From the sequence record NC_025447.1: a DNA stretch of 64,000 bases, one strand, 5' to 3'. This document shows, in pieces, positions 2,510-58,074 of this stretch. Below the pieces are notes generated by a model. The model worked only from the letters and a program-made list of their open reading frames with translations, had not been told where the DNA came from and did no database searches. The position numbers and the translations under genes were made by a program. The DNA comes from Escherichia phage 121Q. Each line of letters begins with the position of its first letter. The first letter of the stretch is position 1.

Positions 2510-2701
2510 ATGTTGATTTATCAAGGTGATAATATTCGTGTTATGCAGCATCCCTACTTACAAATCTTTGATGTGCAGCAGTATATGGAAGGTGATGACC
2601 CAAGAACCTATGGTCGTAAGTATGATTACTTCACTGTAAAGCAGTGTAAAAATATTAACGAAGTACGACAATTAGTTCAAGAACTTCAAAACAAAGGTTG
2701 A
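2510..2701 (+). CDS. hypothetical small protein
   Basis: ATG at 2510 with SD AAGGA 8 nt upstream (track ORF starts 2456 inside upstream gene); stop lies inside terminator stem. Confidence 0.5.
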   Translation: MLIYQGDNIRVMQHPYLQIFDVQQYMEGDDPRTYGRKYDYFTVKQCKNINEVRQLVQELQNKG

Positions 2702-2720
2702 CTTCGGTCAGCCTTTTTTG
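2696..2720 (+). terminator. intrinsic terminator, GGTTGAC-UUCG-GTCAGCC hairpin plus T-run
   Basis: 7-bp GC-rich stem with UUCG tetraloop followed by TTTTTT. Confidence 0.75.
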
Positions 2721-2755
2721 TTATAATTCTCTTAATAAATTAGAGGATTTTAATT

Positions 2756-5935: not shown

Positions 5936-5962
5936 GGGTTGACTAAGGTCAGCCCTTTGTTG
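5936..5962 (+). terminator. intrinsic terminator (GGGTTGAC-n4-GTCAGCCC)
   Basis: hairpin followed by CTTTGTTG. Confidence 0.6.
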
Positions 5963-5997
5963 TATCATAACTTCTCAATATAACTGAGGTATCATAT

Positions 5998-6111
5998 ATG
6001 CAAGGTTTAAAATTTGTAGTTGCTGCACTCATCGCCGCAGTACTGGTTGGTGGTGTATTCTATGTAGTGGATCAAAAAGTAAATCCACCTGCACAAGAAC
6101 AATCTAAGTAA
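5998..6111 (+). CDS. small single-TM peptide (37 aa)
   Basis: not in ORF track (under 60 aa); SD TGAGGT 7 nt upstream of ATG; hydrophobic core; bracketed by two terminators. Confidence 0.45.
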   Translation: MQGLKFVVAALIAAVLVGGVFYVVDQKVNPPAQEQSK

Positions 6112-6119
6112 CAAAATAA

Positions 6120-6145
6120 GGTTGACTTCGGTCAGCCTTTTCTTT
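6120..6145 (+). terminator. intrinsic terminator, UUCG-loop hairpin
   Basis: GGTTGACTTCGGTCAGCC followed by TTTTCTTT. Confidence 0.7.
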
Positions 6146-6149
6146 ATAC

Positions 6150-6157
6150 TATAAATA
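6150..6157 (+). promoter_or_regulatory. T4-type late promoter box TATAAATA
   Basis: exact TATAAATA about 18 nt upstream of ATG 6175. Confidence 0.55.
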
Positions 6158-7686: not shown

Positions 7687-7697
7687 ACATTTAAAAG

Positions 7698-7722
7698 GTT
7701 GACTTCGGTCAACCTTTTTTTG
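7698..7722 (+). terminator. intrinsic terminator, UUCG-loop hairpin
   Basis: GGTTGAC-TTCG-GTCAACC perfect stem then TTTTTTT. Confidence 0.8.
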
Positions 7723-7757
7723 TAAATATAAAAGAGGAATTAAGAAGAGGGATTACA

Positions 7758-8009
7758 ATGAAAAAATATATTATATTTGGAATTGTATTATTTTCCAGTA
7801 CTAGTTATGGTGCAGATTATCATTGCTCCGTAGCAAGACAGGATTTCAGAAATGGGGATTTCTATACCACTTCATACACAAAAGGAATAATACACGACAT
7901 CGACACAACTATTGGATTTAATGCATTTGATAACAAAGATTCATATACTTCAGGTATACTATCTGAGCGTAAGACTGATGTAATGGGAATAGAAAAAGAG
8001 TTCCGGTGA
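7758..8009 (+). CDS. secreted small protein
   Basis: SD AGAGGG; signal peptide; Cys just after signal. Confidence 0.55.
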   Translation: MKKYIIFGIVLFSSTSYGADYHCSVARQDFRNGDFYTTSYTKGIIHDIDTTIGFNAFDNKDSYTSGILSERKTDVMGIEKEFR

Positions 8010-8019
8010 TTCAGTAGCA

Positions 8020-8343
8020 ATGTGCAATGACATTGAAAGTACTAAAACAATTTATTATAATAATGAACGTAATTATCGTTTTCATAATTTAACCACAAAT
8101 AAAAGTTTACTATTTTACAATTGTAAAGAAGTAAAACTCCCACCCGACAATAGCTGTAACCCGACGAACCCATCACCAGCACAATGTAATACTCAATCTG
8201 AACCTGATAACAATAAAAAAGACAAAGATAAAGATAAAAAAGAAGACAAAAAACCTTTAAAAGATAAAAAGAAAGATAAAAAACCTAATCCGTTTAAAAA
8301 TAATAAACCAGCACAACCCGATATGACGTGTAAAATAAAATAA
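8020..8343 (+). CDS. low-complexity Lys/Asp-rich protein (possibly continuation of 7758 gene)
   Basis: weak SD; KDKDKK repeats; C-terminal Cys 4 aa from end as in the Cys-pair family. Confidence 0.4.
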   Translation: MCNDIESTKTIYYNNERNYRFHNLTTNKSLLFYNCKEVKLPPDNSCNPTNPSPAQCNTQSEPDNNKKDKDKDKKEDKKPLKDKKKDKKPNPFKNNKPAQPDMTCKIK

Positions 8344-8352
8344 GGATATATA

Positions 8353-8772
8353 ATGAAAAAGATTTTTTTAAGTATTATTTTAGTACTTTTTAGTTTTAAT
8401 GTATATGCAGCAGATGCTAAACAGGTTGCAAATACAGTAAAAGATGTTATAGTAGATAATGCTCCTACATTAGAGGAAATTGGGGTAAAAACTTGTGATA
8501 TTGTAATATATAATTTAGTTAATGATGAACGAGTTATGTTGAATACGTATGAACAAGTAGTCCCATTGGTTGAATCTGGTGATGCTTTTAGCTTTACATA
8601 TAAAGTTAAATTAACAGGAGGGGTTGAAGTTAATCTTGACATTGATACCGCTTCAGTACTAAAAGATAAACTAGGATATGTGTTCAATCGTATTCGTGAA
8701 GAAGGTCATCTTAAGTATGTTTATGAAAGTAAAATACTAAAACGTGCAATAGTTATAGAAAACTGTAAATGA
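8353..8772 (+). CDS. secreted small protein, Cys-pair family
   Basis: SD AAGGA; signal peptide; Cys near C-terminus. Confidence 0.65.
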   Translation: MKKIFLSIILVLFSFNVYAADAKQVANTVKDVIVDNAPTLEEIGVKTCDIVIYNLVNDERVMLNTYEQVVPLVESGDAFSFTYKVKLTGGVEVNLDIDTASVLKDKLGYVFNRIREEGHLKYVYESKILKRAIVIENCK

Positions 8773-8780
8773 TAATAAAA

Positions 8781-8806
8781 GGGTTGACTTCGGTCAGCCT
8801 TTTTTG
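8781..8806 (+). terminator. intrinsic terminator, UUCG-loop hairpin
   Basis: GGGTTGACTTCGGTCAGCC then TTTTTTG. Confidence 0.8.
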
Positions 8807-8841
8807 TTATGATGTTGATATTAACTACAGAGGATAAAGTA

Positions 8842-9483
8842 ATGACTAAGCAAGAAATATTCAAAACTTTAATTGACATTTTGCGTCCATCAAAAACTCG
8901 TTGTGCGATGGAGTTTGATATTCCTTATGCTGAACGCGTAATCTTTCCACAAGTTAAAGCTGCTGGACTTACTTTGCTTGGAATGGGGATGTACTCTGTA
9001 GTAGTTGAACATAAAAACTATCCTGGGCGTGCATTTAAAGTAACCACTTCACGCTGGGATGGTTTTCGTGCTTATGCAAAGTACTGCATTGAAAACGCAG
9101 GAACCAAGTTTCTTCCAGTGATCTACAGTGCCAACGAACAAGGAAACTTTGGATGGTATGAGATGGACAAGTACTATCCTATAATTAAACAAAAAAATAA
9201 TTATGATGACTTTGTTAGTACTAAAATTGGAGATTTATATTCTTATGCACATGCTGGTCAGTACGCTACTTCAGTGAATGATATGCGTGGTAATTCTGAA
9301 GAGATTGCTATTGCAACGGTCGCTGCTAACATCATGAAAGAGTTTCACGGGCGTTTTGTACCAGACATTCATTCAAGTAATGTAATGATGGATAAAGATG
9401 GGAATGTATTCATTACTGATCCTCTTTCGTGTGATGTGCGTAGAGAAATACCAATTACTGAAGAAGATCCAGTTTTTTATTGA
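8842..9483 (+). CDS. protein kinase-like protein
   Basis: ATG 8842 with SD AGAGGA (track start 8809 lies in terminator); Gly-rich loop GMGMYSVV, AFKV lysine, D-x4-N and ITDP motifs near C-terminus. Confidence 0.55.
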   Translation: MTKQEIFKTLIDILRPSKTRCAMEFDIPYAERVIFPQVKAAGLTLLGMGMYSVVVEHKNYPGRAFKVTTSRWDGFRAYAKYCIENAGTKFLPVIYSANEQGNFGWYEMDKYYPIIKQKNNYDDFVSTKIGDLYSYAHAGQYATSVNDMRGNSEEIAIATVAANIMKEFHGRFVPDIHSSNVMMDKDGNVFITDPLSCDVRREIPITEEDPVFY

Positions 9484-11509: not shown

Positions 11510-11537
11510 TTGACAAACACATTCAGTACTGTATAAT
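11510..11537 (+). promoter_or_regulatory. sigma70-like early promoter TTGACA-N16-TATAAT followed by stem-loop
   Basis: TTGACA at 11510, TATAAT at 11532, then GGGGATGA/TCATCCCC hairpin and SD GAGGA. Confidence 0.65.
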
Positions 11538-13275: not shown

Positions 13276-13301
13276 GGGTTGACTTCGGTCAGCCCTTTTT
13301 G
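13276..13301 (+). terminator. intrinsic terminator, UUCG-loop hairpin
   Basis: GGGTTGACTTCGGTCAGCCC then TTTTT. Confidence 0.8.
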
Positions 13302-13308
13302 CTATAAT
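13279..13308 (+). promoter_or_regulatory. promoter embedded in terminator (TTGACT-N18-TATAAT)
   Basis: TTGACT is part of the terminator stem; TATAAT at 13303; SD GAGAGGA before denV. Confidence 0.5.
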
Positions 13309-13336
13309 TATTTCATCAAGACGAGAGGATGAATAC

Positions 13337-13852
13337 ATGACACGCATTAACTTAGTACACGTTAAAGAACTTGCTGACCAACATCTGATGGCTGAATATC
13401 GTGAACTCCCACGTGTATTTGGTGCTGTACAAAAACACGTTCAAGCACGTAAGCGTGTACGTGATTTCAAAATTAATAGTACTTATCTGTTAGGTTCAGG
13501 TCATGTGACATTCTTTTACGACAAGTTATTGTACTTACAGAAGCGTCATATTGATATTGTCAACGAATGTCTGCGTCGTGGTATGAAGATTCAAAACACT
13601 GAAGTAAACGACATTAGCGGCTTCCCTGCTGAGTTTTGTAATGACTACGTACCAACGGAGTCAGAGATTAAAATGTCTCGTGATCGTTTGATTGAGAAGC
13701 TCCAGATGAAGCCTACGTGGTATAAGTTTACTGATGTTGAATGTCCACAGTACGTTAAAGATATGCAGAACGTAAGTAGTAAGAACGAATCTAGTACTGA
13801 TATGTTCGACGAAATTGAAGAACAAATCAAAGATGAAATGAATAATTATTAA
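13337..13852 (+). CDS. denV: endonuclease V, pyrimidine-dimer DNA glycosylase/AP lyase
   Basis: N-terminal [30 protein letters not shown] and later [15 protein letters not shown] blocks match T4 endonuclease V; about 30-aa acidic C-terminal extension. Confidence 0.9.
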
Positions 13853-13890
13853 AGGAAAGGGTTGACTTCGGTTACACAAAGGAACATAAC

Positions 13891-14085
13891 ATGTTATTAG
13901 TATATTCAACGCGTTTCTGGATTTCTTTTATTGTACTATCGCTAATCGGCTTCGGTTTGAGTATACTCTTTTCGTGGGATGAATTGGGTACATGGTATTA
14001 TGAAGTCCCGTGGTACATGAAGATAGCTCCTTGTTATGCGGCATTGTTCGTGTCATTCCTTATTGTTGTCTTCAGCGAGGATTAG
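13891..14085 (+). CDS. small membrane protein
   Basis: SD AAAGGAA; two hydrophobic segments. Confidence 0.5.
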   Translation: MLLVYSTRFWISFIVLSLIGFGLSILFSWDELGTWYYEVPWYMKIAPCYAALFVSFLIVVFSED

Positions 14086-14136
14086 TTGATGTAGTATGTG
14101 CTACACCAAAGTATTTGGATATTTTAGATATAAACA

Positions 14137-14165
14137 TTGACACCTGTTATATCTTTCTGTATTAT
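14137..14165 (+). promoter_or_regulatory. sigma70-like promoter TTGACA-N17-TATTAT
   Basis: TTGACA at 14137, TATTAT at 14160, SD TGAGGA before ATG 14192. Confidence 0.5.
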
Positions 14166-14191
14166 GTACATCACCAAATGAGGAATACAAC

Positions 14192-14551
14192 ATGGCATCT
14201 TTAAGTGAAATCGCAGAATACAACCCACTAACAATCTCAACAATTCAACGTACAAAAACTTTTTATTTCCGTCCTGCTGATGGATGGAAACGTGGAATGA
14301 ATGGTGACTATCGAGTACTGGAAGATTCACTAATCGAGCGTATCAACTCTGAACTACAGAAGTATGAAGGTGTTAAAGTTGTGCGTTCAACTTCTCGTTA
14401 TTTTGAGTACTACATTGAGTCTTCAACTGTAAATGAAAACTCATCATTCTCGGTGGACAACACTGATATTCTTCGTAATGCAGTTGGTCTGTTATGCAAC
14501 ATTGCAGAAGAAATGGGCTTAACTATTACTACTATGAGTGAATTAGAATAA
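14192..14551 (+). CDS. hypothetical protein
   Basis: 119-aa ORF with SD and upstream promoter. Confidence 0.6.
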   Translation: MASLSEIAEYNPLTISTIQRTKTFYFRPADGWKRGMNGDYRVLEDSLIERINSELQKYEGVKVVRSTSRYFEYYIESSTVNENSSFSVDNTDILRNAVGLLCNIAEEMGLTITTMSELE

Positions 14552-14557
14552 CATAAA

Positions 14558-14583
14558 GGGTTGACTTCGGTCAGCCCTTTTTG
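14558..14583 (+). terminator. intrinsic terminator, UUCG-loop hairpin (doubles as -35 of next promoter)
   Basis: GGGTTGACTTCGGTCAGCCC-TTTTT followed by GCTATAAT. Confidence 0.8.
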
Positions 14584-14616
14584 CTATAATTATTTCATCA
14601 ACACAAGAGGTAACAA

Positions 14617-14856
14617 ATGAAACTATCTTTTATACGATTAGCTGAATTCTTCGGTACTGATATCATTACTTTACAACAAATTGCAGACAATACTTCATTA
14701 AGTATACAAGAAGTACTTGACTTAGATGTAATTCAGTGCGATAATACTTCAATCGATTTCAAAGAAGGTCTTGTCGAAAAAGATAAGATTCAGGCTAAGA
14801 TTAATGGTGCTGGACGGGTTCAGTACTGGAAAGGTATATTATCAAATTCAATTTGA
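14617..14856 (+). CDS. hypothetical protein
   Basis: 79-aa ORF, SD AGAGGT. Confidence 0.55.
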   Translation: MKLSFIRLAEFFGTDIITLQQIADNTSLSIQEVLDLDVIQCDNTSIDFKEGLVEKDKIQAKINGAGRVQYWKGILSNSI

Positions 14857-14899
14857 AATTTTTTGTTATTCATCATATGATAATGAATGGGAACCATAA

Positions 14900-16363
14900 A
14901 TGTATAAAGTATATCGTTCAATTGAAGTTGAAAATGCATTAAGCTTGGCAAAAAGTGAAGAAGCATTTAGAATTTCGTTATTCATTCTTCGTGAAAAGCA
15001 TCCACAATTGCCAATTCCTGATTCATTTGATCAATTGGAGCAGGATACTAATACAGAATGTGATGAAAGTCTGTTGGGATTAATTCGAAATCCAAAGACC
15101 AAAGCTAAGTTCTATCTTAAAATTTGTAAAATTTGTGCAAATGATGTTCAATTGCATGGTTTGGGTGTGTATATTATTGCACAATCGTCATATTTGAATT
15201 CAATAATTCCATGTGGTTGTAGTGAGATACCAAAATGGACTCGTTATCAATATATTATTCGAATAGAAAGAAAAATTTCAAAAACTGGAAAGAAATTATT
15301 ATCAATACCAACTGGTATAATTAAAAGTAATACATATAAACCAACTCTTGTATGTGAACATCACCCAGATGAACTCATGAACAGTGCAACTATAAATGGT
15401 ATTTTATTTGGTTCGAATGGTACAAATGATGGATGTGTTAAATGTGGGAATGAAAGAAAGAAACAGTATCATCGTGAAAGTAATAACGGATTGGAAAATC
15501 ACATTAACGAAATAATGAATACTGGTAAGTTTCATCCAAAGACCACGTTCAAGCGTAGTGATACAGTTAATGATTATGGGAGATTTAGTAAACTTGTATA
15601 CTCATGTCCAATTTGTGCAAACGATGAATATACAAAAAATGGTTTATGTACTGGTGAATTTGAGCAAGAAATGCACACACTCAAACAGGGGCATTTAAGT
15701 TGTCGCTGTACTGGCGGGTTTCGTTGGACAAAAGAACAGCGTGAATATCAAATTAAAAAAGAATTATGTAATCGCTCAACTGATGAAGTGATGTTTACAT
15801 TTATTGGCTGGGACGGTGAATACACTAATTCCCGTAGTGTGTTTTTATATTCACGTAGTGATAGTTCAATTCAACAAAAAATTAATATTGCAGATTTTTT
15901 CAGTTTTGAATATGGTTTTTCAATGTATAATGAGTACGGGTTTAAGAAAAACAAACCTACACGTTCATATATGAACGTTGATCAAACAAACGAATCGGAT
16001 AAATTCGGAATAACCCAACAGGGTAACAGTATCAAACCCCGACTTAAAAAAATTAACAAATCTTTTTTAGAAGAGTATGGTGTTGATAATTTTTGGACTA
16101 ATGTATTAGTTATTTTTTTTCACACCGAAGAAGGGGGATTTTTGGCATCGGAGTTGGAAACACAAGTCCATACTGTTGCATTGTGTGGAAAACCACATAA
16201 AAATATTGGCTATTATAAAAGAGGTGATGGTTATACTGAAACATACAACAACATACATCGTCAAAATGTAATTGAAGTAATAAAACAATTCTTAGCCAAA
16301 CATGAAGGTGAGTACATTATTGAACGTGATATTAATGGTATTTTTGGTGAAGTAATTTTATAA
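14900..16363 (+). CDS. Cys-rich hypothetical protein (487 aa) with duplicated C-x2-C-A-N-D module
   Basis: long ORF; two copies of CxICAND...C(x)C zinc-binding-like module; no GIY-YIG or HNH motif seen. Confidence 0.7.
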   Translation: MYKVYRSIEVENALSLAKSEEAFRISLFILREKHPQLPIPDSFDQLEQDTNTECDESLLGLIRNPKTKAKFYLKICKICANDVQLHGLGVYIIAQSSYLNSIIPCGCSEIPKWTRYQYIIRIERKISKTGKKLLSIPTGIIKSNTYKPTLVCEHHPDELMNSATINGILFGSNGTNDGCVKCGNERKKQYHRESNNGLENHINEIMNTGKFHPKTTFKRSDTVNDYGRFSKLVYSCPICANDEYTKNGLCTGEFEQEMHTLKQGHLSCRCTGGFRWTKEQREYQIKKELCNRSTDEVMFTFIGWDGEYTNSRSVFLYSRSDSSIQQKINIADFFSFEYGFSMYNEYGFKKNKPTRSYMNVDQTNESDKFGITQQGNSIKPRLKKINKSFLEEYGVDNFWTNVLVIFFHTEEGGFLASELETQVHTVALCGKPHKNIGYYKRGDGYTETYNNIHRQNVIEVIKQFLAKHEGEYIIERDINGIFGEVIL

Positions 16364-16383
16364 AATAAAAGAGGTTAATTAAA

Positions 16384-16710
16384 ATGAAAAAGTTAATGTT
16401 AGTTATGTTAATGTGTTTATCAACAACAGTGAATGCAAAAAATGAATCATCAACTACTTGTAAATCTTCAAAAACTGATACGATTTATCAACTGTATTTG
16501 GATGTTTCAACAAAAACTGCTAAAATTGATGGAAAGAAATTTATGTTCGAAAGTCAAGAAGTTTTTAAAGACGGGAGTGGTTCATATACTATTTTTTCAA
16601 ATGATAAATTAAATCAAAAATTAAAAGTTTTTGTTATAAAACCAAATAAGATAAAATATATAATTACCTATAATGGTAAAAATATTGATATGGGTAATTG
16701 TGTGTATTAA
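16384..16710 (+). CDS. secreted small protein, Cys-pair family
   Basis: signal peptide, Cys after signal, Cys 3 aa from end. Confidence 0.65.
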   Translation: MKKLMLVMLMCLSTTVNAKNESSTTCKSSKTDTIYQLYLDVSTKTAKIDGKKFMFESQEVFKDGSGSYTIFSNDKLNQKLKVFVIKPNKIKYIITYNGKNIDMGNCVY

Positions 16711-16725
16711 ATATGTTTATAAAAA

Positions 16726-16751
16726 GGGTTGACTTCGGTCAGCCCTTTTTG
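16726..16751 (+). terminator. intrinsic terminator, UUCG-loop hairpin
   Basis: GGGTTGACTTCGGTCAGCCC-TTTTT, followed by GCTATAAT. Confidence 0.8.
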
Positions 16752-16786
16752 CTATAATTATTTCATCAACTGATGAGGATAACGAA

Positions 16787-40545: not shown

Positions 40546-40558
40546 GCACCCGGTGGGC
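40546..40558 (-). repeat. dispersed CTAGCCCACNGGGTGC element copy (reverse orientation)
   Basis: GCACCCGGTGGGC followed by TAG. Confidence 0.5.
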
Positions 40559-41076
40559 TAGAGTCTTTCTCGACTTGATAAAAATATTATAGCAGTACTG
40601 AATTATAAAAGCAATAGCCTGGATGTAAAAAGTTTTAATTAATTTGCTTGTCATCCTGGGGCGTACTATGGTACTATGATTCAGTACTGAGAAAGTGCTA
40701 TGACCTGCTAAGGTGCGGGAGTGTATCCTTTTTAAATTTACTGAATTTTGGGCGTAATTCCGCACCCCCTGGGGTATCCGCTTTCTCGCGTCTATGTAGT
40801 AATTATACGCTTTTTTAGTACTGAGTCAATAGCTAAAAACAAAATAATTGAAAATAATTTAACGCGTTTAAACGGCCCGTAAAGCCCTGGTTAGCTGGTG
40901 GCGGTGCAAATGTATAGCTTAGGTGTATTAATGCGTTAGAATGCGATTGAGGACGTTTTACGGGGTATAGTACTGATTCAGTACTGAATAGTAGTACTGA
41001 AAGATTGTTCTCCCTGGATTGTTCCAGTACTCCTATATAGAAAGAAAACTATTTTAAAAGTATTTGTAGAAAGTAC

Positions 41077-42525: not shown

Positions 42526-42608
42526 GTAGTTTACAAATCTTTACAATTGCCAGTATTGACTTATTTTGTCAGTACTGGCATAATGTATCTATTGAAACGA
42601 ACAATTTG

Positions 42609-42621
42609 GCCCACGGGGTGC
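42609..42621 (+). repeat. dispersed CTAGCCCACNGGGTGC element copy
   Basis: GCCCACGGGGTGC followed by GGGAGTGTATCTAT. Confidence 0.5.
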
Positions 42622-42666
42622 GGGAGTGTATCTATAGAAAAAGTAGTTTATTACAGTTACAATTGT

Positions 42667-42678
42667 GCACCCGGTGGG
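42667..42678 (-). repeat. dispersed element copy (reverse orientation)
   Basis: GCACCCGGTGGGTTAG; paired with the 42609 copy as an inverted repeat. Confidence 0.5.
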
Positions 42679-42775
42679 TTAGCTGTTGTCATGGGGTATA
42701 TTATGCCAGTACTTGATAATGCTGTCAATACTTTTTTTTTACTATTCAGTACTGAAAACTATTTTTAAAAAGTAC

Positions 42776-44824: not shown

Positions 44825-44836
44825 GCACCCTGTGGG
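44825..44836 (-). repeat. dispersed element copy (reverse orientation)
   Basis: GCACCCTGTGGGTTAG inside an about 80-bp block also seen at 42667-42740. Confidence 0.5.
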
Positions 44837-45005
44837 TTAGTGACTATCTCGTCTTTATGTAGGTATTATGCCAGTACTGGATGCAGTTGTCAAGACTTTT
44901 TTTTCAAATACTTTTATATTAAAGTACTTGATAATAGTTTTTAAACGCGTATAATGTTTTACATCTAATCGGGAATACTCCCTAGTACTAACAAAGGATA
45001 TACAA

Positions 45006-48915: not shown

Positions 48916-48922
48916 AAAAAGT

Positions 48923-48946
48923 GGTTGACTTCGGTCAGCCATTTTG
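48923..48946 (+). terminator. intrinsic terminator, UUCG-loop hairpin
   Basis: GGTTGACTTCGGTCAGCC then ATTTT. Confidence 0.7.
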
Positions 48947-48978
48947 CTATTATATATTCATTGAGAGATAGCTCACTA

Positions 48979-48991
48979 GCCCACAGGGTGC
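48979..48991 (+). repeat. dispersed CTAGCCCACAGGGTGC element copy
   Basis: ACTAGCCCACAGGGTGCAGGAGTGTATCTAT. Confidence 0.55.
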
Positions 48992-49138
48992 AGGAGTGTA
49001 TCTATTGTATAATGATTGAGTACTGAAAACTATTTTAAAGTATTTGATAAAAAGTACTTGCAAACTATCTCAATGAGCGTATAATGTTTTATATCGCAAG
49101 GGGAAACGGTTTCCTCTCCAAATAAAAGGAATACCAAA

Positions 49139-50602: not shown

Positions 50603-50662
50603 TCTATTGACAATATTATCCAGTACTGGCATAATACTTACATCAAGACGAGAACGTCACTA

Positions 50663-50675
50663 ACCCATAGGGTGC
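50663..50675 (+). repeat. dispersed element copy (variant)
   Basis: ACCCATAGGGTGCACAAATGTAACTAT. Confidence 0.45.
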
Positions 50676-52454: not shown

Positions 52455-52600
52455 AAGAATTTTTATTCGAAGTAGTGTTCCAGGGCGTAGGAAGTAACCA
52501 ACTGATTCGATCAAGTGGTTACAATGTTAACCAGGCATGGAATAACATTAAACAAATGTACCCGAACGCTATCACATATCGCAACCCAAAACAAGTTTAA
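52451..52600 (+). CDS. hypothetical small protein (49 aa)
   Basis: not in ORF track; ATGA overlap; followed by terminator. Confidence 0.4.
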   Translation: MKEFLFEVVFQGVGSNQLIRSSGYNVNQAWNNIKQMYPNAITYRNPKQV

Positions 52601-52614
52601 AAAGAATAAAAAAA

Positions 52615-52640
52615 GGGATTGACTCCGGTCAGTCCCTTTG
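52615..52640 (+). terminator. intrinsic terminator, UCCG-loop variant
   Basis: GGGATTGAC-TCCG-GTCAGTCCC then TTTG; followed by GCTATTATATA. Confidence 0.7.
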
Positions 52641-52666
52641 CTATTATATACGCATAGACAAAAACT

Positions 52667-52679
52667 AGCCCACAGGGTG
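52667..52679 (+). repeat. dispersed CTAGCCCACAGGGTGC element copy
   Basis: ACTAGCCCACAGGGTGCATAAATGTATCTAT. Confidence 0.55.
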
Positions 52680-52783
52680 CATAAATGTATCTATTATATG
52701 CTGGTGGCTAGTACTATCAAGTACTGAAAACTATTTTTAAAAAGTACTTGCATTGTACTTAGAATCAAGTATAATGTTTTACA

Positions 52784-55912: not shown

Positions 55913-55938
55913 GGGATTGACTCCAGTCAGTCCCTTTG
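55913..55938 (+). terminator. intrinsic terminator, variant hairpin
   Basis: GGGATTGACTCCAGTCAGTCCC then TTTG. Confidence 0.65.
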
Positions 55939-55969
55939 CTATTATATATTCATTGAGAGATAACTCACT

Positions 55970-55983
55970 GACCCATAGGGTGC
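55970..55983 (+). repeat. dispersed element copy
   Basis: ACTGACCCATAGGGTGCGGAAGTGTATCTAT. Confidence 0.5.
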
Positions 55984-56122
55984 GGAAGTGTATCTATTAT
56001 ATAAGTATTCAGTACTGAAAACTATTTTATAAAAAGTACTTGCAAACTATCTCAATGAGCGTATAATGTTTTATATCGAGAGGGGGAAATGGTTCTCCCT
56101 GGTACTAAAAGGAATCAAGACG

Positions 56123-57818: not shown

Positions 57819-57837
57819 CAAAAAAGAATAAAAAAAG

Positions 57838-57863
57838 GGATTGACTCCGGTCAGTCCCTTTGC
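57838..57863 (+). terminator. intrinsic terminator, UCCG-loop variant
   Basis: GGGATTGACTCCGGTCAGTCCC then TTTG. Confidence 0.7.
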
Positions 57864-57889
57864 TATTATATACGCATAGACAAAAACTA

Positions 57890-57903
57890 GCCCACTGGGT
57901 GCA
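57890..57903 (+). repeat. dispersed element copy
   Basis: ACTAGCCCACTGGGTGCAGAGAAGTATCTGT. Confidence 0.5.
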
Positions 57904-58074
57904 GAGAAGTATCTGTAAGATAGTTAATAACGGTGAGTAACTATCTGCTGGTGGATGTAATTCCAGTACTCAAAACTATTTCAAAAAAGTATTGACAAAG
58001 TATAGCAGTACTGAGATAATGTATCTCGTAGGGCGGCAATAGTGCAGCCCACCTCCAAAAGAGCGAGATATAAA

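Follow-up and report, generated by a model that had tools for sequence, protein, structure and literature searches.

A putative terminator-promoter cassette of the PeSL type in the early small-ORF regions of a RaK2-like jumbo coliphage

Terminators joined to promoters

Intrinsic terminators in their canonical form consist of a GC-rich hairpin and a U-rich tract of 7-9 nt directly after it. The closest described systems join such termination to initiation. In T4-type phages, promoter-early stem-loop (PeSL) cassettes, found in RB49/phi1 (Arbiol et al. 2010, PMC2839356) and also in PST/T4 and nt-1/KVP40 (Comeau et al. 2014, PMC4122927), combine a sigma-70-like promoter that has an AT-rich upstream region with a terminating stem-loop. 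They fall into five subclasses by position, and in one of these the stem-loop overlaps the -35. Both their promoter and terminator activities have been demonstrated by lacZ fusions; they occupy hyperplastic regions and mediate cassette shuffling, and mini-circles have been reported (PMC2839356, PMC4122927). Bacteria have promoter-coupled terminators, for which RNA ends were mapped in Acinetobacter, E. coli and Bacillus and which are defined by a 3' end at most 35 bp upstream of a same-strand start, with a mode of ~10 bp (Fletcher, ..., Grainger, bioRxiv 10.64898/2026.08.19.745784). At these sites the DNA of the stem-loop serves as the -35, the T-tract helps the promoter, and a promoter-bound polymerase increases termination efficiency (bioRxiv 10.64898/2026.08.19.745784).

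Since PeSLs and promoter-coupled terminators have already been described, the principle considered here is not new. Our literature searches found no description of a composite element or PeSL in the RaK2-like clade; for Asteriusvirus and its relatives they returned only separate lists of RpoD-like promoters and ARNold terminators (in the CBB paper), and RNA 5' or 3' end data for any Asteriusvirus were not found in the searchable literature. What appears to be new is the extension of the family to RaK2-like jumbo phages, together with cassette swaps through the element. The repeated hairpin described below is best explained, from its sequence and by analogy, as a composite terminator-promoter cassette of the PeSL type, equivalent to a bacterial promoter-coupled terminator, that would punctuate early small-ORF regions.

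The element and its setting

The window, a 64,000-nt stretch of Escherichia phage 121Q (NC_025447.1), comes from an Asteriusvirus, a genus of RaK2-like jumbo myoviruses that infect E. coli and have genomes of ~350 kb. By megablast, the first 15-20 kb of the window are 97-99% identical to the nearest records, G17, Sharanji and CRJP21. Small plus-strand ORFs fill ~1-20 kb, long minus-strand genes ~20-36 kb, and very small ORFs ~36-64 kb, where a promoter-like site occurs every few hundred bases and relatives are highly mosaic. The copy on which we focus lies on the plus strand in the first of these regions and has the following parts.

13276-13308, plus strand: the focal copy, GGGTTGACTTCGGTCAGCCC followed by a T-run and TGcTATAAT
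13276-13295, plus strand: core stem GGGTTGAC/GTCAGCCC with a TTCG loop
13272-13299, plus strand: RNA hairpin, including A-tract/U-tract pairs that extend the stem
13279-13284, plus strand: -35-like hexamer TTGACT
13296-13300, plus strand: T-run, a candidate terminator U-tract within the promoter spacer
13300-13302, plus strand: TGc of an extended -10, overlapping the end of the T-run
13303-13308, plus strand: -10 TATAAT, at an 18-nt spacer from TTGACT
downstream: predicted start at about A13315, Shine-Dalgarno (SD) GAGG at 13325-13328, ATG of a denV-like gene at 13337

The hairpin has a cUUCGg tetraloop and a single U.G wobble, and TTGACT is made of the final five bases of the 5' arm and the first base of the loop. 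The initial annotation had placed here a UUCG-loop hairpin that runs into a T-run and carries TTGACT in its stem, with TATAAT 18 nt downstream, and both statements hold in the sequence (GGGTTGAC-TTCG-GTCAGCCC, with the T-run and hexamers at the coordinates above). A spacer of 18 nt is suboptimal for sigma-70. The predicted 3' end, at ~13300-13305, would precede the predicted start at ~13315 by ~10-14 nt.

A search of the window with the 20-mer, allowing up to three mismatches, gave 11 matches, all on the plus strand, compared with 0.00 in 100 shuffles; a looser core search added the copy at 55917, for 12 full copies. Eight lie in a first region (TTGAC starting at 2698, 5939, 6122, 7699, 8784, 13279, 14561 and 16729) and four, which we call group B, in a second (48925, 52619, 55917 and 57841), so that the element is confined to two small-ORF regions, 2.7-16.8 kb and 48.9-57.9 kb. 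The window motif searches found no copies at 17-48 kb, which includes the long minus-strand genes at ~20-36 kb. Besides the focal copy, the family comprises the following.

2695-2727, plus strand: full copy, AGG...CCT stem, TGtTATAAT; its TTGAC contains the TGA that ends the 63-aa ORF upstream
5936-5968, plus strand: full copy, TAAG loop, -10 TATCAT; left joint of slot 5998-6111
6119-6150, plus strand: full copy, spacer 17, -10 TATACT; right joint of slot 5998-6111
7696-7728, plus strand: full hairpin, perfect palindrome (GTCAA), poor -10 TAAATA; left joint of slot 7758-8772
8781-8813, plus strand: full copy, TGtTATGAT; right joint of slot 7758-8772
13859-13874, plus strand: truncated copy; left end of a 2.85-kb segment, 13873-16723, missing from phage ph0011
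14558-14590, plus strand: full copy; left joint of variable slot 14617-16710
16726-16758, plus strand: full copy; right joint of variable slot 14617-16710
48922-48953, plus strand: group B copy, TGG...CCA stem, spacer 17, TGcTATTAT
52615-52647, plus strand: group B copy, GGGATTGAC-TCCG-GTCAGTCCC with an extra A-U pair and a UCCG loop, then TGcTATTAT
55913-55945, plus strand: group B copy, TCCA loop, then TGcTATTAT
57837-57869, plus strand: group B copy, with 93% identity to 52599-52699 across 101 nt

This census revises an earlier count of fourteen hairpin copies: twelve stand as full copies, at positions that agree within 1-4 nt, and the two listed as weaker, at 13858 and 50306, are not full copies. 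The former (13858/13862) does belong to the family but is truncated, GGGTTGACTTCGGTTA, consisting of the 5' arm and loop and lacking the 3' arm, T-run and -10. The latter is a different hairpin, AGCCCACCAG...CTGGTGGGCT, unrelated to the family, and was dropped from it.

Three of the copies, at 13276, 14558 and 16726, are identical over ~47 nt; group B forms a sub-type, GGGATTGAC-TCCG-GTCAGTCCC with one added A-U pair, spacer 17 and TGcTATTAT. All copies are intergenic and co-oriented with the flanking genes. In the eight first-region copies, the distance from a stop codon to TTGAC is 9-18 nt, except at 2698, where the two overlap, and an ATG with the SD GAGG follows 53-59 nt past TTGAC; for copy 8784 the annotated downstream start is at 8842, and this copy (8781-8813) precedes a gene annotated in relatives as a protein kinase. 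No ORF was found within ~100 nt after the four group B promoters. The 63-aa ORF that ends in the first copy (2510-2701) is a small gene that moves widely among phage families: its homologues, 38-56% identical, come from T7-like, Krischvirus, rV5-like and Serratia phages.

The hairpin as an RNA structure

Predicted hairpin energies range from -13 to -20 kcal/mol across the copies. The focal sequence folds to -20.4 kcal/mol (z = -6.3) on the plus strand and -12.7 on the minus strand, and two further folds give sense and antisense values of -19.9 vs -13.3 and -14.1 vs -9.3 kcal/mol. Two features give the sense RNA its much greater stability, the U.G wobble, which becomes C.A on the other strand, and the UUCG loop. 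In 34 of 39 hairpins from RaK2-like loci, TTGAC likewise has a G opposite its first T. We infer that a G at this position would keep the RNA pair and avoid creating on the other strand a TTGAC in mirror image, which could act as an antisense -35. Loops are mostly UNCG, and orthologous copies vary to UACG or UCCG.

Covariation was followed in nine window copies and in sequences from an IMG/VR scan for TTGACTTCGGTCA-N4-TTT, for which a -10 was the sole criterion of selection. At the three stem pairs outside the fixed core, two-sided changes occupy 18 cells, compared with 4.7 after shuffling, and none of 500 shuffles reaches 18, which we read as support for pairing and not as proof because the sequences are related. 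The variants include GGG/CCC, AGG/CCT, GCC/GGC, GAG/CTC and TGG/CCA, and pairing collapses when the partner column is slid. Directly after the stem, first-region copies have 3-7 U's and then more U-rich sequence. Group B continues with UUUGCUAUUAU and has just three consecutive U's, so its members are possibly weak terminators. The related records G17 and GAP32 annotate these hairpins as ARNold terminators; an Rfam scan of the whole window at the gathering threshold matched no family.

The predicted promoter overlapping the hairpin

Generic promoter-like hexamer pairs show no excess in the window (95 vs 97.6 in shuffles), so a test of the promoter must be specific to the element. As a -10 we counted a hexamer at a spacer of 17 or 18 that matched at 4 or more of its 6 positions, with an A second and a T sixth. 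That most copies carry a downstream -10 box, as the initial annotation stated, is borne out: 11 of the 12 full copies have one at spacer 17-18, the exception being 7699 (TAAATA). The -10 forms include TATAAT, TATTAT and TATGAT, TGn precedes the -10 in 9 of the 12, and an A-tract lies upstream of the element.

The association also holds in wider sets of sequences. From 81 unique viral matches we took 75 context-distinct sequences with the fixed core; a -10 at 17-18 nt follows in 43 of the 53 that have the extended stem vs 3 of the 22 that do not (P = 6e-8), the latter being mostly chance matches in coding DNA. Of 87 terminator-like hairpins in RaK2-like loci, 37 have TTGAC as the 5-mer that closes the loop, and a correctly spaced -10 accompanies 33 of 39 TTGAC hairpins (85%) vs 12 of 48 others (25%; P = 3e-8). 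No such -10 was found at the terminator-like hairpins without TTGAC in the window (4129, 44765, 46048 and 54417).

Relatives carry a gene for an RpoD-like sigma ~10 kb upstream of the position of the window start (at 1-324, 1-230 and 1-229 of three loci). Promoters of the sigma-70 type could thus be recognized by the sigma-70 of the host, by that of the phage, or by each at a different time.

A model for termination and restart

We consider it highly probable, from the sequence and the described systems, that the element would end an upstream early transcript at the U-run and start a new one from the overlapping extended -10 promoter, its repeats serving secondarily as homology patches. A polymerase arriving from the upstream gene would transcribe the A-tract, GGGUUGAC-UUCG-GUCAGCCC and the U-run; the very stable cUUCGg hairpin would fold in the nascent RNA, and release would follow in or just past the U-run, at ~13301-13305 in the focal copy. 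As duplex DNA, the same bases would be read by a sigma-70-type holoenzyme, either that of the host or one with the phage RpoD-like sigma: the 5' arm and the first loop base (TTGACT) would act as the -35, the A-tract would lie at the position of an UP element, the T-run would become the spacer, and TGnTATAAT would be an extended -10. Transcription would restart ~10-14 nt past the termination point, with a leader of ~22 nt ahead of the SD and ATG. By analogy with the bacterial elements, the promoter-bound polymerase probably also raises termination efficiency. Where transcription would end and begin, when, and with which sigma factor, we infer from the anatomy above and from these analogies. The earlier suggestion that this is a compact module that insulates and restarts transcription is supported by the strand asymmetry, the covariation of the outer pairs, the association with the -10, the genomic context, a predicted spacing of transcript end and start like that mapped at promoter-coupled terminators, and the promoter and terminator activity that near-identical PeSLs showed in reporter assays.

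Copies of the element as joints between cassettes

Junctions were compared with eight relatives, and breakpoints, taken as BLAST alignment ends accurate to ~10-20 nt, were analyzed in the first region; the second (48-58 kb) is far more mosaic among relatives. Eight of 23 distinct breakpoints lie at most 15 nt from element footprints, which make up 4.3% of the region (P = 3e-6), a value that overstates independence because these sequences, like those of the covariation set, share ancestry and the events are not all independent.

In ph0011, slots 5939|6122, 7699|8784 and 13862|16729 show three-way junctions, as does 14561|16729 in SP27. SP27 lacks 14621-16722 and has there a single element whose left flank is that of copy 14561 and whose right flank is that of copy 16729. 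In ph0011, one element each replaces slots 5939|6122 and 7699|8784, a 3.8-kb insertion that includes a DNA methyltransferase begins at copy 13279, and the left flank of half-copy 13862 is fused to the right flank of copy 16729, a junction that marks the half-copy as the scar of a crossover in the loop or 3' arm. Phage UB has a chimeric element at the 5939 slot, and the contents of slot 14561-16729 differ among G17, CRJP21, PBECO4 and phAPEC6.

The sequence comparison thus indicates that cassettes were gained, lost or replaced among the relatives by crossovers within the element, its copies being the joints of exchange. As a 45-100-nt sequence that recurs in direct repeats, the element forms a homology patch. 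Recombination from copy to copy would delete, insert or replace the genes in between, and each cassette would bring its own promoter and terminator. In this window the slot between copies 14561 and 16729 encodes a 487-aa protein (14900-16363) with a CapR homology domain (Pfam PF21817, E = 2.6e-23); in phAPEC6 the same slot holds a gene annotated "exonuclease ABC C subunit."

Relation to known systems and distribution

Like a PeSL, the window element has a sigma-70-like promoter, an AT-rich upstream region and a stem-loop, which here contains the -35. First-region copies, like PeSLs, are bounded by an upstream stop and a downstream SD and start, group B having no following ORF, and the element is limited to plastic small-ORF regions, where it flanks indels and replacements between close relatives; PeSLs, too, cluster in such regions and are missing from blocks of structural genes. 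The likeness is greatest with nt-1, whose PeSLs, AAAAGGG-TTGC..-loop-..GCAGCCC-TTTTT-(TGn)-TATTAT, match the window element nearly base for base: the intergenic sequences AAAAGGGTTGCTTCGGCAGCCCTTTTTTGTTATTCT and AAAAGGGTTGCACTATGCAGCCCTTTTTAGTATTAT have the A-tract, GGG clamp, in-stem -35, T.G wobble, spacer T-run and -10 as in the window, and a ACATCAAC-like start region occurs in both. There are also differences. PeSLs were described in T4-type myoviruses (Straboviridae), whereas the present element belongs to a RaK2-like jumbo myovirus (Asteriusvirus), and its promoter and terminator activities are predicted; the window family is unusually uniform (TTGAC, UNCG loop, GTCAG); and the copies of the second region have, fused to them, a conserved non-coding leader in place of an SD-ATG.

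With promoter-coupled terminators the element shares a -10 right after the T-tract, stem-loop DNA that would act as the -35, an upstream A-tract, a location between tandem genes and a predicted gap between termination and start of ~10-14 nt, compared with their mode of ~10 bp. Those terminators, however, are individually diverse chromosomal sites, mapped by Term-seq and Cappable-seq, whereas the window holds one family present 12 times in 64 kb and read from DNA, with a role as a cassette joint that the bacterial concept does not include. Intrinsic terminators of the cUUCGg type likewise have the GC-clamped stem, extra-stable UNCG loop and U-run seen here, but the window stem is constrained to spell a -35 and the group B U-run is short.

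A search for the strict 21-nt hairpin in one representative genome for each of 185,579 bacterial species yielded 18 stretches, most of which lack a -10; this rarity argues against a common host motif borrowed by the phage. A 58-nt window query retrieved 177 phage records, including RaK2-like genera, KVP40-like Vibrio phages, Aeromonas phage 65 and Cronobacter phages. Near-identical 40-50-nt copies are found in RaK2-like genera, in KVP40/nt-1-like Vibrio and Aeromonas 65-like phages (Straboviridae) and in Cronobacter/Enterobacter myoviruses of ~150 kb, and copies from these lineages share TTGAC-UUCG-GUCAG, the GGG/CCC clamps, the T-run and TGnTATAAT. One could imagine the element as an exchange joint between families, through which unrelated co-infecting phages swap promoter-equipped cassettes by homologous recombination, perhaps via packaged mini-circles, but we regard this as unlikely; the alternative is convergence on one optimal design. 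Cross-family transfer through the element was looked for at two homologue loci of the 63-aa ORF upstream of copy 2698, and neither has an adjacent element.

Alternative explanations

Could the element be a terminator only, with TTGACT and TATAAT as by-products of an AT-rich intergenic context and downstream genes expressed through read-through? Public records annotate solely a terminator, the hairpin's 18 bacterial occurrences mostly lack a -10, and promoter-like hexamers overall are no more frequent than in shuffles (95 vs 97.6). Yet chance context would not lead one to expect TTGAC to close the loop in 37 of 87 hairpins of the clade, a -10 at exactly 17-18 nt in 85% of TTGAC hairpins vs 25% of others, or a TGn ahead of the -10 in 9 of 12 copies, nor is such a -10 present at the four window terminators without TTGAC (4129, 44765, 46048 and 54417); we consider this explanation very unlikely. 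Still less probable, in our judgment, is a primarily mobile or recombination element, either a selfish repeat or a site used by a dedicated recombinase or homing system, whose regulatory appearance would be secondary. Crossovers inside the element at several cassette junctions, the half-copy scar at 13862, the near-identical 40-50-nt copies in unrelated phage lineages and the mini-circles reported for PeSLs would all fit mobility, but the copies retain the orientation, stop/start spacing, -10 and T-run of a working regulatory site, genomes differ by whole cassettes between two copies, as in ordinary homologous recombination, and not by insertions of the element alone, and at two inspected homologues of one flanking ORF, in other phage families, the element is missing.

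The least probable of these readings takes the palindrome as DNA, as a promoter whose -35 region is the operator of a dimeric protein, be it a phage early regulator or a host factor of the CRP/FNR type, and makes the RNA hairpin irrelevant. The core TTGACTTCGGTCA presumably resembles CRP/FNR-type sites (with their TTGAT-N4-ATCAA-like consensus). The inverted repeat TTGAC-N4-GTCA overlaps the -35, a typical operator position, and terminator palindromes can double as transcription-factor sites; TTGACTTCGGTCA also occurs once in a paper on global regulator regulons. The 3' half-site, however, is GTCAG rather than GTCAA in 34 of 39 hairpins, an asymmetry that breaks the DNA symmetry while keeping the RNA U.G pair and on which an FNR/CRP-type operator was rejected. 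Moreover, compensatory pairing runs on into GGG/CCC, AGG/CCT, GCC/GGC and GAG/CTC, beyond plausible half-sites, the loops are UNCG tetraloops and a T-run follows every stem.

Other signals in the window

Several further patterns accompany the early regions. The palindrome AGTACT occurs 271 times in the window, vs 21.6 expected (12.5-fold; the next 6-mer palindrome is 2.5-fold), for example at 11524, 39836, 42570, 44474, 48476 and 56362, and CAGTACTG occurs 57 times vs 0.9 expected. The sites lie in all three frames within ORFs, in the spacers of a second class of promoters (TTGACA-N8-AGTACTG-TATAAT) and in some terminator stems, and an excess of 12-17-fold is also present in GAP32, RaK2, CBB and other RaK2-like contigs (seven loci); a small nt-1 sample has 0 vs 2.1 expected. 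AGTACT is a clade-wide DNA-level signal, and our literature searches found no paper on its excess. Between 47000 and 59500 there are at least 12 copies of this second promoter family (TTGACA or CTTGCA, N8-9, AGTACTG, TATAAT), many with a GGGGAGAATAGTTCTCCCC-type hairpin directly at the predicted 5' end of the transcript, an arrangement that resembles the PeSL subclass with a stem-loop downstream of the -10.

A leader box, TARCCCAYNGGGTGC, is present 10 times in the window vs 0.49 expected.

40546-40560 (minus), 40762-40776 (minus), 42607-42621 (plus), 42667-42681 (minus) and 44825-44839 (minus): leader box TARCCCAYNGGGTGC
48977-48991, 50661-50675, 52666-52680, 55969-55983 and 57888-57902: leader box TARCCCAYNGGGTGC

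Wherever the scan found a -10, the box lies 18-26 nt past it, a position of about +11 to +19 in the early transcripts predicted for the two promoter classes, and a GTATCTAT-like block usually follows after 6 nt. About 50 unique copies occupy the same position in RaK2-like contigs of several genera. In the RNA, the box may be a site for protein binding or of the antitermination type, or an SD-like element that serves a mini-ORF; in the DNA, it may be an operator. At 42540-42730, two promoter-like sites face each other ~100 nt apart, with a leader box after each, so that the predicted transcripts are fully complementary over ~70-100 nt; this arrangement recurs in GAP32 and CBB loci.

Each group B element is followed by a conserved non-coding leader of ~80-130 nt (48954-49046, 52648-52735, 55946-56028 and 57870-57985) and then by another promoter-like site. 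Element and leader together (105 nt) are 73-96% identical across all RaK2-like genera; each genome has 4-8 copies, and several of these lie within annotated terminal repeats. A small RNA was considered for these leaders and set aside, their folding z-scores being unremarkable (-1.2 to -1.6).

Implications

If the 33-nt core works as proposed, it would be a candidate insulator-plus-promoter part for engineering, and the family as a whole would offer a compact, highly uniform natural test set for promoter-coupled terminators. The PeSL concept would reach beyond T4-type phages and be linked to its bacterial counterpart. For the RaK2-like phages themselves, the elements would provide a ready operon map of early regions in which nearly all genes are unannotated, with the end of one transcript and the restart of another predicted at each copy. 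Their mosaicism would also find an explanation in accessory-gene cassettes carried between repeats of the element, such as those that hold the CapR-domain protein in this window and the DNA methyltransferase in ph0011.
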